Virus record (IMG/VR): IMGVR_UViG_2548876695_000014
DNA length: 4,733 nt
Source: a virus
Lineage: Duplodnaviria > Heunggongvirae > Uroviricota > Caudoviricetes
Strand: one strand, 5' to 3'
The notes under the pieces: generated by a model
What the model was told of the DNA's origin: nothing
Databases searched by the model: none
Seen by the model: only the letters and a program-made list of their open reading frames with translations
In this document: positions 1 to 4,733 of the stretch, in pieces
Layout: the number at the start of each line of letters is the position of its first letter
Numbering within the stretch: position 1 is the stretch's first letter
Made by a program: the position numbers and the translations under genes

Positions 1-167
1 CAGGTAGGCAGCATTAATAACCGCCTGTGCCAGATCGCGTTTCTCAAACTTTCCTTTTTCCGGTTAACGTGACATACCAATAACTCTTGTCGAAAAAGCC
101 AGCAAGTTGAAAGACCGGTATTAATAACCACCAGCGAATTTATTGCGCTGCTGTATATTACGGACAC

Positions 168-190
168 AAAAAAACCACCTTCCGGTGGCT
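168..190 (-). terminator. Intrinsic terminator about 100 nt downstream of the antirepressor-like gene
   Basis: On the minus-strand RNA: stem CCACC / GGUGG (plus 175-179 and 184-188) with loop GGAA, extendable by two flanking pairs, followed directly by a 7-U tract (plus A-run 168-174). Confidence 0.45.
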
Positions 191-287
191 TCCTTGTGCG
201 AAAAAAACTTGCGTTTCGCCTCGCGATACAGCTTTGCGAAGCATACAGGAATTGAAGCAGTTTATGTGCAAAAATGCAAGAACTTTT

Positions 288-869
288 TTAAAGCTGCATC
301 AACCTTTCCACCAGTTTATCTCTGCGAACAACAAACCAACCATTGGCTCTCGCCAGTTCCAGCCATGACTCAAGGGAAATAACAATATCATCATCCCGTA
401 ACTGAATTGTGGAAACAGTGACACCGCCTCTCTGATAACAGAGAACTCGCGTGTCGTAACTTTTCTGGCATGAAACTGGCGCTGACGGATCCTTTTGTCT
501 GAAATAGCAGTCTTCCAGCTTTTCGAACACATCCCACGCCTGATCGGTTTCCAGCATTTTGGCATGACGGGCTGCTCCGCGTTCTGTCCAGAGGATGAGG
601 GAGCGGGCTTTCGGGGAAATTTGTAACCCTCTTAAAGATGGTTGCAAATTTTGTGAGTAGTTTAAAGCTACCCGCAAATTTTTCAGGGCATCGCCAGCCA
701 CTTTGAAAAAATGCTTTCCTTCAATAAAGCGCTCAGCATTTCTGGCGTAGTTATTTTGAATGTTCTTAACTCCAGCACCGTACAACTGCGCCAAAAGTTC
801 GGTGGTAATAACAGGAATCTGGTTATGGGTGATCGGGGAGAGAGTTTCAATAGAAATTTGAGTTGTCAT
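288..869 (-). CDS. Antirepressor-like DNA-binding protein, 193 aa (ORF6N/Rha-type N-terminal domain suspected)
   Basis: Full ORF from ATG 869..867 to TAA 290..288; AGGG Shine-Dalgarno 7 nt upstream. N-terminal region (...VITTELLAQLYG...NAERFIEGKHFFKV...LILWTERGAARHAKMLETDQAWDVFEKLEDCYF) matches my memory of phage antirepressor N-terminal domains. Family assignment not verified by search. Confidence 0.6.
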   Translation of the reverse strand: MTTQISIETLSPITHNQIPVITTELLAQLYGAGVKNIQNNYARNAERFIEGKHFFKVAGDALKNLRVALNYSQNLQPSLRGLQISPKARSLILWTERGAARHAKMLETDQAWDVFEKLEDCYFRQKDPSAPVSCQKSYDTRVLCYQRGGVTVSTIQLRDDDIVISLESWLELARANGWFVVRRDKLVERLMQL

Positions 870-910
870 AATGACGCCCTCTGGTGGTTTCTAAACCATC
901 ACCACCGTCA

Positions 911-921
911 GGTTCCTAATC
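911..921 (+). repeat. GGTTCCTAATC motif, copy 1
   Basis: Exact 11-mer, identical to the copy at 1077-1087; sits in the loop of a CACCACC/GGTGGTG hairpin. Confidence 0.6.
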
Positions 922-942
922 ATCGGGTGGTGAGACGTACAG

Positions 943-952
943 GGTTAGGAAC
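943..952 (-). repeat. Inverted copy of the same motif (GTTCCTAACC read on the minus strand)
   Basis: Plus 943-952 is GGTTAGGAAC, the reverse complement of GTTCCTAACC; differs from the direct copies at one position (T to C). Confidence 0.55.
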
Positions 953-1030
953 TACCGGGAAACCAACCGGCGAGCTTTTCAGCTCCCCCATACGCCCCAC
1001 CATAATTCAGATGTGCGCGTGCATACGACA

Positions 1031-1054
1031 ATAAAAAACACGCTCGCGGCGTGT
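1031..1054 (-). terminator. tR'-like intrinsic terminator downstream of the Q-like gene
   Basis: On the minus-strand RNA: stem ACACGC / GCGUGU (plus 1038-1043 and 1049-1054), 5-nt loop, then a U tract (plus A-run 1033-1038). About 80 nt downstream of the predicted start site of the 1117-1146 promoter. Confidence 0.5.
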
Positions 1055-1076
1055 GTCTGTCGCGGTCTCTATCCGG

Positions 1077-1087
1077 GGTTCCTAATC
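1077..1087 (+). repeat. GGTTCCTAATC motif, copy 2
   Basis: Exact 11-mer, flanked by CCGGG and CCCG; lies inside the short leader between the late-type promoter and its terminator. Confidence 0.6.
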
Positions 1088-1116
1088 CCGACGCCAGATT
1101 TTGCTGGCGCGTGAGG

Positions 1117-1146
1117 AATATAGCCCCGGATAACAGATTGAGTCAA
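1117..1146 (-). promoter_or_regulatory. Strong sigma70-type promoter directly after the Q-like stop codon (pR'-like late promoter candidate)
   Basis: On the minus strand: -35 TTGACT (plus 1141-1146, overlapping the TGA stop), 18-nt spacer, -10 TATATT (plus 1117-1122); predicted start near plus 1110-1112. The first 20 nt of the transcript can form a CGCCAG/CUGGCG hairpin (plus 1092-1109). Confidence 0.5.
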
Positions 1147-1697
1147 CAGACAGTTTTTAAATACCCGGAAGAGAATGCATCACGCATCGGCAGATAGAGC
1201 ATATATTCAGCAAGATTTAGCCATACATCTACCCGACTGCAGCACGTCCGAAAACACCACTCAGGGTGTGCATCATTTAGCAATTCAGCCATTTTGCGCT
1301 TACTCATCCCCCGCCCTTCATATCTTTGCCGGAGGATACAAATCAATCCTGGGTGTTCTGCCAGCACTTCACTAATCACCCGATCAATGCATAACGCCTC
1401 TGCATCAGTACAATGCACCAGCCAGCTTTTTTGCTTGCCGTTGATCATATCCCGCAAAAAAGCCTCAAGTTCAGGTTTGTCCAAACCTGCTTTTTTCATC
1501 CTCCGGAGCGCCTCGTTAATTGCCGTTTTTGTCAGCTTTTTAGAGGTCAGCAACTGGTTGAACATATTTCCCGTCTTACCGCCGCCAATATACGACCAGC
1601 GCCCCCACATGCGCAGTTTTCCCTGAATCCAGACACTTTCCAGCGTGGTGAGACGAAGGTGCTCTCCGCTTTTTCCTGTGTTCGTTGGGTAAATCAT
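1143..1697 (-). CDS. Q-like late-gene antiterminator candidate, 184 aa (positional call; family unverified)
   Basis: ATG at 1697..1695 overlaps the upstream TGA in an ATGA junction; GGAG/AGGA Shine-Dalgarno 9 nt upstream. The 224-aa track ORF is an in-frame extension back into the upstream gene. It is the last gene of the nin-like module and is followed at once by a promoter and terminator, as Q is in lambdoid phages. It contains a Cys/His cluster (HC-x6-C ... HPEWC-x3-CC). It does not resemble the lambda Q sequence as I recall it. Confidence 0.5.
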   Translation of the reverse strand: MIYPTNTGKSGEHLRLTTLESVWIQGKLRMWGRWSYIGGGKTGNMFNQLLTSKKLTKTAINEALRRMKKAGLDKPELEAFLRDMINGKQKSWLVHCTDAEALCIDRVISEVLAEHPGLICILRQRYEGRGMSKRKMAELLNDAHPEWCFRTCCSRVDVWLNLAEYMLYLPMRDAFSSGYLKTVC

Positions 1698-2642: not shown

Positions 2643-2816
2643 TCATTCCCGAATCACCTTGAAACCGAGCCTTTCAAGATATTCAATGAATGCCTCGATA
2701 GATAAAATTACATGATTATCAGGGATTAACGTTGCGTAGATAACTTCCCCATTCTCAACGCGCACAGCATAGAGGCCATTTTCACTAAAAATTTCACGCA
2801 ATTCTTCGATTTTCAT
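2643..2816 (-). CDS. Small hypothetical protein, 57 aa (below the ORF-track length cutoff)
   Basis: ATG 2816..2814 to TGA 2645..2643, hand-translated: MKIEELREIFSENGLYAVRVENGEVIYATLIPDNHVILSIEAFIEYLERLGFKVIRE. GGAAGGA Shine-Dalgarno 8 nt upstream. First gene after the 2898-2925 promoter, same strand as its neighbours. No family recognised. Confidence 0.5.
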   Translation of the reverse strand: MKIEELREIFSENGLYAVRVENGEVIYATLIPDNHVILSIEAFIEYLERLGFKVIRE

Positions 2817-2897
2817 CAACAGAATCCTTCCAGATAAATAGCACTCCCCTGCTCGGGGTCCATCCCTCTTCTCCCTGCGCGCTACTTAAGTGCATCG

Positions 2898-3009: not shown

Positions 3010-3402
3010 TTACATACTCTCAATGTCATTTTTTAGTGAGTGCTTGTGTAACTCCATGGAGTAATCAACATCACGAAGAGTTTTTTCAATCTGCTTGCTT
3101 CTCAGGGTGGCAAGCGCATTATCAATTGACACTTTTTCTTCATCTGAAGCATCAGCTCTCATTTTCGTAAGAGTCTTACGAGCCCTTGCCACATCCACCT
3201 TGAAACGTACGTCCTCTATGCTAGGTACGTTAACAAACGTAAGAAGTAGCAAAAAGAAGTGAGCAATAACAACAGCAACCCCAGGGAGAAATGCGTTGAT
3301 ATCAGCAGGTAACCCAATATATGCGCTAGCCTTGACCAATAGGTAATTTGCCACCGGTGTGCACCACGCTTGGCTTGCAACATACTTAGATTGTTGAATC
3401 AT
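3010..3402 (-). CDS. Small membrane protein, 130 aa: hydrophobic N-terminal segment(s), charged helical C-terminal half
   Basis: ATG 3402..3400 overlaps the upstream stop (ATGA); GAGG 6 nt upstream. Strongly hydrophobic stretch LPGVAVVIAHFFLLLLTFVNV, then a Lys/Arg/Glu/Asp-rich tail. AT-rich codons. No family recognised. Confidence 0.65.
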   Translation of the reverse strand: MIQQSKYVASQAWCTPVANYLLVKASAYIGLPADINAFLPGVAVVIAHFFLLLLTFVNVPSIEDVRFKVDVARARKTLTKMRADASDEEKVSIDNALATLRSKQIEKTLRDVDYSMELHKHSLKNDIESM

Positions 3403-3638
3403 GAAGTGCCTCGCGTTAAATCACGCTGAACCTCACTCAACGTGGACGCGAGCTCACGTGCATCCTTTGCATCCAACTGAACTTCGCAATAATGCCTAAC
3501 TCCACATCGATCTATATAAGTAAATTTGAGTGTCTTACTTGGTTTAAGCCAAACCAAAAAATGATATACAGCAAAACGAGCCAACATAAAGGCGGCAACA
3601 AAAACCGTAATCATCAACATGACACTTAAATAAGGCAT
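3399..3638 (-). CDS. Small membrane protein, 79 aa: single N-terminal transmembrane helix
   Basis: ATG 3638..3636, only 8 nt after the stop of the upstream gene. Hydrophobic residues 3-31 (YLSVMLMITVFVAAFMLARFAVYHFLVWL) followed by a polar C-terminus. No family recognised. Confidence 0.65.
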   Translation of the reverse strand: MPYLSVMLMITVFVAAFMLARFAVYHFLVWLKPSKTLKFTYIDRCGVRHYCEVQLDAKDARELASTLSEVQRDLTRGTS

Positions 3639-3646
3639 ATTATTAC

Positions 3647-4516
3647 CTATACGATTCGACGTTCAGCTGCGGCGCGATGCCGTACAACCTGCGTGATAAT
3701 GTATGCTGGATTCCCCAATACACCATTAGTTTCTTTGACTCTTTTTGTCACATTCACTACAAAAAGATCATCTTTACTGAATGACGCTTCGTTTAAATTT
3801 ACTCGCTCAAGAAAACCAGCATCCGCCATCTTAACCTTTACATCCTCGCCGTCTGGCAATACCATCCTCCAATCTGTATCGGAAGTAAAGCTCAGCTTAG
3901 AAAACTTGACGTTTAAGGTCAATGAGTCTTCATGTGTATGTTGTACAACCGTATTATTCACTTTTTTAAAAGAAACAGATTGCTCTTGCGAAATAGAGAC
4001 AATCTCCTCCCCACTTGAGTTTTTTACTCTAAACGACGAGTTTTTTTCAGTTTGCAGAGGAGTGTGTACCAATTTACTCATTTCATTGCGGATCGTAGAG
4101 TTTGTAACGAGCTTTTGTACGTCATTTGAACACTCAAATCGCTCATTATCAACAACAAAAGTCGCTCGGTTATTGGCTTCATCTATAACAACCTCATGTG
4201 GCTTTCGCCCTCGCAACCATTCTACAACCCCAACCAAACTCCCAGCACTTGCGCCGGTGGCAACAGAAAGCCCCAAGAGTTGCAAAGTAGATAAACTACC
4301 CAAAACAGAGACAAGAACAGTAAAAGATCCTTCCTGAATTGCCTTAATACTAACCCTAGTTGTTGCAGTCTCACCGTGGATAATTTTCTCTGCATTATCA
4401 ATCAAATTACTTAATGAAGACAGAGCATCACCAAGCATTTTAGCATCGATCTCATTATTCGCATATGCATCCCCAGCATATGCAATCTCAAGCTCTGTTA
4501 CCTGTTGGTCGGTCAT
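3647..4516 (-). CDS. Hypothetical protein, about 289 aa, with an internal hydrophobic hairpin carrying a G-x3-G-x3-G motif; first gene of the AT-rich operon
   Basis: Long minus-strand ORF, stop TAG 3649..3647. Two in-frame ATGs: 4534 has no Shine-Dalgarno, 4516 has GGTGGAG 9 nt upstream, so I prefer 4516. Hydrophobic stretch encoded near 4220-4327 includes TGASAGSLVG. No Walker or other enzymatic motif seen. No family recognised. Confidence 0.7.
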   Translation of the reverse strand: MTDQQVTELEIAYAGDAYANNEIDAKMLGDALSSLSNLIDNAEKIIHGETATTRVSIKAIQEGSFTVLVSVLGSLSTLQLLGLSVATGASAGSLVGVVEWLRGRKPHEVVIDEANNRATFVVDNERFECSNDVQKLVTNSTIRNEMSKLVHTPLQTEKNSSFRVKNSSGEEIVSISQEQSVSFKKVNNTVVQHTHEDSLTLNVKFSKLSFTSDTDWRMVLPDGEDVKVKMADAGFLERVNLNEASFSKDDLFVVNVTKRVKETNGVLGNPAYIITQVVRHRAAAERRIV

Positions 4517-4609
4517 GAAGTTCAACTCCACCATAAAAAATATGCAAAATAATTAACAGTATTTTCACTTTATGGCGGGTGCGTTGAGGATGCCTGACAC
4601 ATCAGAGGT

Positions 4610-4635: not shown

Positions 4636-4733
4636 TTACTCCTCAGGTTCGTAGGCTACGAAGACAGCGACCTCCGTCTGGCCGGTTCGGATTCGTACCT
4701 CGCAGAGGTCTTTCCTCGTTACCAGTGCCGTCA
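4636..4733 (-). CDS. 3' end of a gene entering from the right edge (C-terminal 31 codons only); product unknown
   Basis: Minus-strand frame open to the window edge, ending TAA 4638..4636; hand translation ...TALVTRKDLCEVRIRTGQTEVAVFVAYEPEE. Composition is more protein-like than the other open frames here. Too short for the ORF track. Confidence 0.3.
   Translation of the reverse strand, partial: TALVTRKDLCEVRIRTGQTEVAVFVAYEPEE

Follow-up and report, generated by a model that had tools for sequence, protein, structure and literature searches.

The window analyzed herein, a 4,733-nucleotide (nt) stretch of the IMG/VR virus record IMGVR_UViG_2548876695_000014 (Caudoviricetes), carries an ORF6N-type gene at 288-869 on the minus strand, downstream of a Q-like antiterminator gene. 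Our results indicate that the segment 1146-288 (minus strand), which includes this gene, is very likely an autonomous, RNA-gated antirepressor cassette of the immI type, lying between the stop codon of Q and Q's own promoter/qut/terminator block. We are similarly confident, from the sequence and order of its elements, that the cassette is homologous to isrK-(orf45)-anrP of Gifsy-1 and, in its RNA part, to c4-icd-ant of P1/P7. The locus is a further member of a known and experimentally characterized cassette type, with its own C4 specificity and no orf45 coupling. Since the module has already been characterized in Salmonella and in P1, the gain lies in its placement and in the comparison, rather than in a new mechanism.

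In the mechanism that we propose, a constitutive sigma-70 promoter, placed across the stop codon of Q, would mostly yield a 77-nt terminated RNA, IsrK, bearing two target sites (a1 and b1), with read-through transcripts carrying a C4-type antisense RNA and then the mRNA of the antirepressor gene (ant). The C4 loop b' and single strand a' would pair with b2 and a2 in the ant leader. IsrK, which bears the same two targets, would titrate C4 or refold the leader, thereby turning Ant synthesis on. Ant, consisting of ORF6N and a small C-terminal domain, would then inactivate the RacR-like prophage repressor, and this would open the early operon that ends in Q. The present analysis shows the domain and homology assignments, the matches to RNA families, the covarying complementarity, and the displacement of the post-Q block, whereas the transcription and regulation of this Escherichia coli prophage, the repressor as the target of Ant, and the block as pR'/tR' are proposals. 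That the promoter is active, that IsrK activates the translation of anrP, and that AnrP drives induction have been shown in Gifsy-1 only.

RNA elements and gene of the cassette

The spacer between Q and the antirepressor gene is 273 nt long and contains three Rfam elements, all of which score above the gathering score. The features of the cassette are as follows:

1117..1146, minus strand: cassette promoter (equivalent of PisrK and of P1 Pc4), with -35 TTGACT at 1146-1141, an 18-nt spacer, and -10 TATATT at 1122-1117
1123-1070, minus strand: c4-a1b1 (RF03163), Rfam 47.8 bits, gathering score 46.7
1110-1033, minus strand: isrK (RF01394), Rfam 69.4 bits, gathering score 50, model positions 1-77
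1033..1123, minus strand: IsrK / c4-a1b1 RNA, with a1 UUAGGAAC at 1085-1078, b1 GAGACCG at 1069-1063, and an intrinsic terminator
1054-1038 (stem), U-run to 1033, minus strand: IsrK intrinsic terminator, from a terminator scan
1007-923, minus strand: C4 antisense RNA (RF01695), Rfam 67 bits, gathering score 45, model positions 1-87, full length
923..1007, minus strand: C4-type antisense RNA, equivalent of STnc1160 of Gifsy-1, with b' UGGUUUC at 965-959 and a' GUUCCUAA at 952-945
870..922, minus strand: ant mRNA leader, with a2 UUAGGAAC at 919-912, b2 GAAACCA at 891-885, Shine-Dalgarno sequence GAGGG at 881-877, and start codon at 869-867
288..869, minus strand: antirepressor gene, AnrP-type, 193 amino acids (aa), with an ORF6N N-terminal domain and a small C-terminal domain (approximately aa 125-193)

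The promoter at 1146-1117 is sigma-70-like, with 10 of 12 consensus matches in a consensus scan, and the Q stop codon TGA (1145-1143) falls within its -35 hexamer. It sits 7 nt upstream of the IsrK 5' end, and the predicted start fits the beginning of the Rfam IsrK match at 1110. A LexA box was looked for by eye at this promoter, and none was seen. The minimum-energy fold of the C4 RNA (-42.9 kcal/mol) has the expected architecture, in which a long stem encloses two inner hairpins and the recognition stretch stays single-stranded, with b' forming the loop of hairpin 2 and a' the single-stranded stretch. The latter is complementary to both a1 and a2 over 8 nt, exactly, while b' is complementary to b2 over 7 nt and pairs with b1 of IsrK over 7 nt, when G.U pairs are included. 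Because b2 ends 3 nt before the Shine-Dalgarno sequence, pairing with C4 should keep ant untranslated. The C4 gene and these target sites occupy the approximately 168 nt between the IsrK terminator and the antirepressor gene, a spacing that does not bear out an initial annotation in which the gene sat directly behind the terminator. The label "tR'-like" given there to 1054-1038 is not supported either by the comparison with related prophages; this is the terminator of IsrK (Rfam 69.4 bits).

The equivalent of the orf45 frame (1003-920) has 27 codons and ends 50 nt before the ant start codon. An icd/orf45-like open reading frame (ORF) coupled to ant was looked for in the 53 nt between C4 and the ant start and was not found; the other frame there is a 10-codon ORF that lacks a Shine-Dalgarno sequence. 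Since orf45 is not conserved, and is here short of the ant start, we propose that C4 would directly occlude the ribosome-binding site of ant in this cassette.

The ORF at 288-869 is intact and, like all genes of the window, lies on the minus strand. The initial annotation had called its product an ORF6N/Rha-type protein of the antirepressor kind, and the ORF6N and antirepressor parts of this assignment hold: Pfam places ORF6N at aa 12-105 of the 193-aa protein (E 4e-19, 69 bits, cut-off 27.8), the entire protein aligns with the "anti-repressor" family PHROG 2379 (E 3e-90), and it is 53% identical to Gifsy-1 AnrP/STM2616, again over the full length of 193 aa (E 5e-67). Among the domains proposed for a search, ORF6N is the one that was recovered; Rha, KilAC/ANT, and Bro-N, as well as P22_AR, were looked for in Pfam and were not found, so that ORF6N is the sole Pfam domain, and an NCBIfam search gave no match. 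Against alleles with 89-90% identity, the ratio of nonsynonymous to synonymous substitution rates (dN/dS) is 0.15-0.21, from which we conclude that 288-869 is a real gene under purifying selection.

It could be argued that the protein is not an antirepressor at all, but another DNA-binding protein of the ORF6N/KilA-N type, such as a transcription, superinfection-exclusion, or defense factor, carried as a moron. ORF6N is, after all, a DNA-binding fold for which "anti-repressor" is mostly an annotation label, weak PADLOC matches link the protein to the candidate defense family PDC-S05 (E 2e-6), and its C-terminal domain is unlike the P22_AR_C and KilAC domains of proven antirepressors. However, the 53% full-length identity is to AnrP, which raises early-operon transcripts and induces Gifsy-1; the gene lies under an immI-type RNA switch, and in P1 such a switch controls a proven antirepressor; and loss of Ant in phi24B has been reported to affect induction from pR' (PMC3064807). 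We therefore consider a role other than that of an antirepressor unlikely.

Two further observations concern the domain architecture of this gene. First, relative to the 89-90% identical alleles in L002 and L046, it is a mosaic: synonymous divergence (dS) is 0.5-0.7 over the N-terminal 125 codons but drops to 0.02-0.05 over the C-terminal 68, where the sequences hardly differ, a contrast that points to recombination inside the antirepressor gene. Second, a 58-aa ORF at 2643-2819 (minus strand), part of which is flagged as a partial pseudogene in RefSeq, matches phrog_340 (E 1e-18), as does, weakly, the antirepressor C-terminus. This ORF is 29% identical over 45 aa to the C-terminal domain of the antirepressor (window 288-515; pairwise E 3e-5). 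The prophage may carry here a second, free-standing copy of that domain.

Covariation and contexts across related cassettes

By scanning IMG/VR with an invariant 25-mer of IsrK, we found at least 120 loci, and the loci listed yielded 123 parsable cassettes, 58 of them unique; the latter form the basis of the covariation counts, and the counts in this section refer to the matches listed. The C4 recognition sequences are diverse, with at least 9 types of a' and at least 17 types of b', in at least 24 combinations. The cognate a1 was present in all 58 unique cassettes and the cognate a2 in 55, compared with 6% and 5%, respectively, of non-cognate pairings. The cognate b1 was present in 57 of the 58 with G.U pairs allowed (non-cognate, 21%) and in 38 when at least 6 nt of Watson-Crick pairing were required (non-cognate, 3%). 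For b2, a first test with G.U pairs over the whole leader offered no discrimination, as 74% of non-cognate pairings passed, and it was replaced by the Watson-Crick test of at least 6 nt, under which the cognate b2 was present in 52 of the 58 (non-cognate, 16%). This coordinated change at three places provides strong evidence, of a comparative kind, that C4 pairs with both IsrK and the ant leader.

The same 58 cassettes bear on the orf45 frame. This frame, which opens at a conserved ATG within C4, is as short as 8 codons in some cassettes and longer than 64 in others, and it overlaps the ant start codon in six unique cassettes, all of the Gifsy-1 type. Given this variation in length, we rejected orf45 as a conserved coding frame, and the ATG is probably conserved as part of an RNA stem, rather than as a start codon.

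The cassettes occur in several genomic contexts. Of the upstream genes, 27 encode a DUF1133 Q, 16 a Q82-type Q (PF06323), and 11 a PF06530 Q; in approximately 30 cases the upstream gene belongs to a nin region, and in approximately 41 there is another gene or none. The same promoter and RNAs thus follow Q genes of three Pfam families (PF06576, PF06323, and PF06530), and they also occur beside an integrase and other genes on IMG/VR contigs. The promoter elements TTGAC and GGGGCTATATTC are kept in every cassette context, with or without Q.

These contexts bear on an explanation closer to the initial annotation, in which 1146-1117 would be a Q-dependent pR', the 77-nt RNA a 6S-like leader, 1054-1038 its tR', and the ORF6N gene the first late gene, expressed once Q has modified RNA polymerase. 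The promoter does overlap the Q stop, as pR' does in VT2-Sakai and in Q82-type phages, and it is predicted to make a short terminated RNA. Further, the cassette directly follows the stop of three Q families with a gap that is always 34-42 nt, and the spacer between -35 and -10 differs among genomic contexts. Yet an identical promoter, leader, and terminator are found without a Q gene upstream: in the nin region of VT2-Sakai, in P1 (a phage devoid of Q), and where the cassette adjoins the integrase or other genes. Sites of Q utilisation are specific to a Q family, but the initially transcribed region does not vary among three unrelated ones, and PisrK is active in Gifsy-1 lysogens under conditions that do not induce antQ (PMC4825925). 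Finally, a DUF1133-linked block with its own terminator, described below, is retained downstream in 23 of 24 loci with a DUF1133 Q. We consequently judge a Q-dependent promoter at this position to be very unlikely. The promoter and terminator taken for pR'/tR' instead belong to a portable IsrK/C4 cassette, and a place for the gene as the first late gene under Q control is not supported.

Placement between Q and a candidate late promoter

In the DUF1133 context, the features that flank the cassette are as follows:

1143..1697, minus strand: Q-like antiterminator gene, DUF1133 family, 184 aa (Pfam, PHROG 753)
215..289, minus strand: block that abuts the Q stop in cassette-less relatives, a remnant of the last Q codons plus a candidate pR' (blastn to L006, L007, and L008)
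279-274 (-35 TTGCAT), 259-258 (TG), 256-251 (-10 TTCAAT), and 245-240 (-10-like repeat TATGCT), minus strand: putative elements of the candidate pR'
165..198, minus strand: intrinsic terminator after the block, candidate tR' (fold and terminator scan)

The Q-like gene matches DUF1133 in Pfam (E 1e-106), Phage_antitermQ at 27.5 bits, and PHROG 753 ("anti-termination protein Q-like") with an E of 2e-80. Three related prophages (L006, L007, and L008) encode a DUF1133 Q with approximately 90% DNA identity over most of the gene and 78-87% protein identity, and they have no cassette. In these, a conserved block lies directly 3' of the Q stop and is followed by an intrinsic terminator and then by tRNAs, TerB, DUF3927, an esterase, and a holin. 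By blastn, this block falls at window positions 289-215, so that its start coincides precisely with the ORF6N stop codon. It takes in approximately 20 nt that in L007 make up the final codons of Q; it also holds a conserved initially transcribed region. The block that abuts the DUF1133 Q in cassette-less relatives, therefore, lies downstream of the ORF6N gene here, a placement at odds with a first-late-gene position.

The association of the block with DUF1133 is consistent among the matches listed. It occurs approximately 50 nt after the ant stop in 23 of the 24 cassette loci that have a DUF1133 Q, and one locus with an unclassified upstream gene also has it, whereas the loci whose Q is of the Q82 type or of PF06530, and those in a nin region, all lack it. 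More broadly, 1837 of the 5426 complete E. coli genomes contain the block. In 40 sampled E. coli hits, the match fell on an annotated DUF1133 gene in 26, on ORF6N in 2, and on no annotated feature in 12 (mostly shorter matches). An alignment of 22 unique block versions revealed a conserved TTGC(A/T)T, 17 nt, and an invariant AAACTGCTTCAAT (TG-n plus a -10), followed by a conserved GTAnGCTTCGCAAAGCTGTAyCGCGAGGCGAA and then by approximately 25 variable nt, with three or four unrelated sequences at the terminator position. A conserved promoter-proximal part with an interchangeable terminator is the pattern expected of a pR'/qut/tR' unit. Further, VT2-Sakai and the Q82-type phages share the layout of the block, in which the final codons of Q contain the -35 and the spacer contains the stop codon.

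In choosing among possible pR' layouts, TAnGCT was rejected as the -10, as it has no usable -35, and TTGACG in L007 was rejected as the -35, as it is 21 nt from TAnGCT; TTGC(A/T)T, 17 nt, and TG-n-TTCAAT was preferred. Block 289-215 would, on this layout, contain the late promoter pR'. The fold of 246-165 (-34.3 kcal/mol, z -4.4) consists of a hairpin followed by U7, and the terminator at 198-165 is, from its position in the alignment, a better candidate for tR' than 1054-1038. The initial annotation was right in seeing a terminator behind the ORF6N gene, although it is probably not that gene's own, being included with the block that abuts Q in relatives.

Inside Q, DNA homology to DUF1133 Q genes that have no cassette ends at approximately window 1242-1252, near aa 148, or approximately 100 nt before the Q stop, indicating that the last approximately 33 Q residues travel with the cassette. 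These residues are a diverged, alignable variant. We conclude, from these alignments, that the cassette and the variant Q C-terminus form a mosaic segment, approximately 1250-289, between Q and Q's own late-promoter unit.

Given that the cassette lies between the Q stop and block 289-165, ant would close the early-right transcription unit and have a promoter to itself in addition, and the antirepressor gene is probably not a late gene. Late control, as proposed initially, was to be distinguished from transcription of the gene from a constitutive promoter of its own, and homology favors the latter: in Gifsy-1, the isrK promoter drives anrP, for which lacZ fusions gave 280 versus 3 Miller units with versus without this promoter (PMC4825925, Table 1A).

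With regard to induction, YdaS and YdaT adjoin the prophage repressor, a RacR-type protein of 154 aa with an HTH_3 domain, in which no recognizable S24 peptidase (self-cleavage) domain was found. Since the repressor lacks S24, an antirepressor route to induction is plausible, with the RNA-gated antirepressor acting as the trigger, as in the Gifsy phages. For the latter, PMC4825925 cites PMC3121763.

Several points weigh against the cassette model as set out above. First, the Gifsy-1 mechanism uses orf45 coupling, and the frame here stops 50 nt short of ant, such that the details of activation are not simply transferable. Second, constitutive STnc1160, the C4 equivalent, strengthened rather than weakened IsrK toxicity in Gifsy-1 (PMC4825925), which is a misfit to a simple model of C4 as repressor and IsrK as decoy. 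Third, the proposed -10 of the late promoter, TTCAAT, does not have the usual A at position 2, and it is credible only as an extended -10 promoter. Fourth, DUF1133 proteins are regarded as Q antiterminators by homology: the family has been termed Q via HHpred alone (PMC8136144), and a literature search on DUF1133 Q proteins found comparative work and no experiments.

The source prophage can be examined directly, as the chromosome of E. coli 2000-3039 carries a prophage with 100% identity to the window. There, hokD is followed by three unnamed ORFs (one without annotation, the other two labeled as hypothetical proteins), DUF1367, DUF1364/YbcO, DUF1133, and ORF6N, and then by a TerB pseudogene, DUF3927, an SASA esterase, holin, lysozyme, Rz, and terminase. 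The antirepressor gene thus lies downstream of the Q-like gene and upstream of the lysis genes. This agrees with the other option of the initial annotation, that of cargo in the Q-to-lysis slot, and the lysis genes that it sought to the left of the window are indeed present beyond the ORF6N gene. Coverage of window 1700-900 (Q and cassette) reaches at least 80% in 129 complete E. coli genomes, and that of window 1-1200, where the antirepressor gene lies, does so in 125; carriers of the Q and cassette arrangement include Shiga toxin-producing E. coli (STEC) strains O145 and O157.

This neighborhood also bears on the alternative that the cassette has no present function and survives as an inactive relic of a prophage in decay. 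In keeping with decay, the neighboring TerB pseudogene has an internal stop, several partial genes lie nearby, and the orf45 frame is truncated relative to that of Gifsy-1. Nevertheless, the antirepressor gene is intact and under purifying selection, all of the RNA elements and their complementarities are intact and above Rfam thresholds, and the prophage retains its lysis, terminase, portal, and capsid genes. The stretch with Q and the cassette is, moreover, found in the 129 complete E. coli genomes mentioned above, and window 1-1200 in the 125. Hence, we regard a functionless relic as very unlikely.

The window also includes genes at its margins. Its left end (1-33) lies in the TerB-family pseudogene with the internal stop, and its right end (4636-4733) lies inside hokD, a type I toxin gene. 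Between hokD and DUF1367 is a three-gene insert on the minus strand (3647-4534, 3399-3638, and 3010-3402), which encodes a 295-aa protein matching the PADLOC candidate defense family PDC-S42 (E 1e-46), followed by 79-aa and 130-aa ORFs with only PHROG matches of unknown function. In the related prophage L006, the anti-phage genes IteA/IteS lie just upstream of DUF1367, the corresponding position.

A broader possibility, to which we would give somewhat less than an even chance, is that RNA-gated antirepressor cassettes have docked repeatedly at the Q stop/pR' junction, in no fewer than three unrelated Q families (PF06576, PF06323, and PF06530), with the last Q codons (the pR' -35) kept on the far side each time. 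Ant would then be a feed-forward element at the end of the early operon, IsrJ of Gifsy-1 and 289-165 would be 6S-like leaders of late operons, and the 9 x 17 a'/b' combinations among the matches listed would be immunity "barcodes." If this were the case, the a'/b' types would set which co-resident prophages cross-induce one another. An RNA-gated antirepressor could also provide for cross-talk among the many lambdoid prophages of STEC strains, some of which have Shiga toxin genes behind Q. For annotation, a promoter and a short terminated RNA just after Q are not necessarily pR'/tR', and a rule that takes the first terminator after Q as tR' would misplace late-operon boundaries in approximately 125-129 complete E. 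coli genomes.

Comparison with known antirepressor and immunity systems

The closest counterpart is the Gifsy-1 locus, comprising antQ, isrK, orf45 (STnc1160), anrP, and isrJ (Hershko-Shalev et al. 2016, PMC4825925), where IsrK in trans raises anrP translation more than 100-fold, and AnrP raises antQ-operon RNA and induces the prophage (PMC4825925). Like the window, it consists of Q, a promoter over the Q stop, IsrK and its terminator, a C4-like RNA, an ORF6N antirepressor, a short terminated RNA or block, and lysis genes; the same three Rfam families appear in the same order and spacing, and the RNA region aligns along its length. An IsrK small RNA has approximately 77 nt, two 5' hairpins, and an intrinsic terminator, a description that the RF01394 match in the window fits. 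AnrP, 53% identical to the window protein, likewise has ORF6N as its sole Pfam match and a C-terminal domain of approximately 65 aa. The two loci differ in Q family (PF06323 in Gifsy-1, DUF1133 in the window) and in C4 specificity, with a' GUUCCUAA and b' UGGUUUC in the window compared with a' ACGCCAA and b' CGGUGAU in Gifsy-1. Further, orf45 of Gifsy-1 overlaps the anrP start (AUGA) and mediates activation by IsrK, whereas the 27-codon frame in the window falls short of ant.

A search for an isrJ homologue after the window antirepressor gene gave no Rfam match at E up to 1, and its place is taken by the DUF1133-linked block. In Gifsy-1 (L005 33512-33400), the isrJ promoter and 5' part follow anrP. 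The same sequences overlap the 3' end of Q82-type Q genes in Klebsiella/Enterobacter phages that do not have the cassette (L129 2501-2589; L130 2501-2610), where the isrJ-like sequence is followed by a tRNA and lysis genes. The geometry is thus repeated in a second Q family, and IsrJ looks like a 6S-like RNA that leads the late operon of Gifsy-1, rather than the product of a small RNA gene in its own right.

The immI RNA of P1/P7 is similar to the window in having a promoter, a1, b1, a terminator-like hairpin, C4, a2, b2 by the ribosome-binding site, and an antirepressor gene; the P1 record annotates the promoter, a1, b1, C4, a2, b2, icd, and ant, and the window elements occur in the same order. 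However, icd is present in P1, whereas b2 in the window adjoins the Shine-Dalgarno sequence of ant itself. P1 also differs in being a plasmid prophage, rather than a lambdoid one, and in having a C1 operator, which is absent from the window. Homology between the antirepressors themselves was rejected, as P1 Ant and the window protein gave a BLASTP E of 8.5, and P1 Ant1 carries an ANT/KilAC domain.

In VT2-Sakai, the RNA cassette associated with ant is 84% identical to that of the window over 287 nt, and the ORF6N N-terminal domains are 78% identical over aa 1-125. In contrast to the window, this cassette lies in the nin region, between nin60 and roi, approximately 2.3 kb upstream of Q, its Ant has a P22_AR_C C-terminal domain, and its C4 specificity is of the Gifsy-1 a' type. 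Ahead of the tRNA and stx genes, the VT2-Sakai Q is followed by a promoter-terminator region of its own. We take Ant of phi24B to be of the same ORF6N and P22_AR_C type by description alone, as a P22-like C-terminal domain is described for it (PMC3064807).

Finally, the immunity system of P4 (CI RNA with seqA, seqB, and seqC) resembles the proposed switch in its logic, whereby an antisense RNA, once processed, finds copies of its target on either side of itself in the transcript from which it comes. CI and C4 belong to the same Rfam clan (CL00128), and IsrK has been called a structural homologue of SeqA by the Gifsy-1 authors (PMC4825925). The systems diverge in outcome, which in P4 is the premature termination of transcription of the replication genes, with no antirepressor involved, whereas in the window C4 would act on the translation of one.

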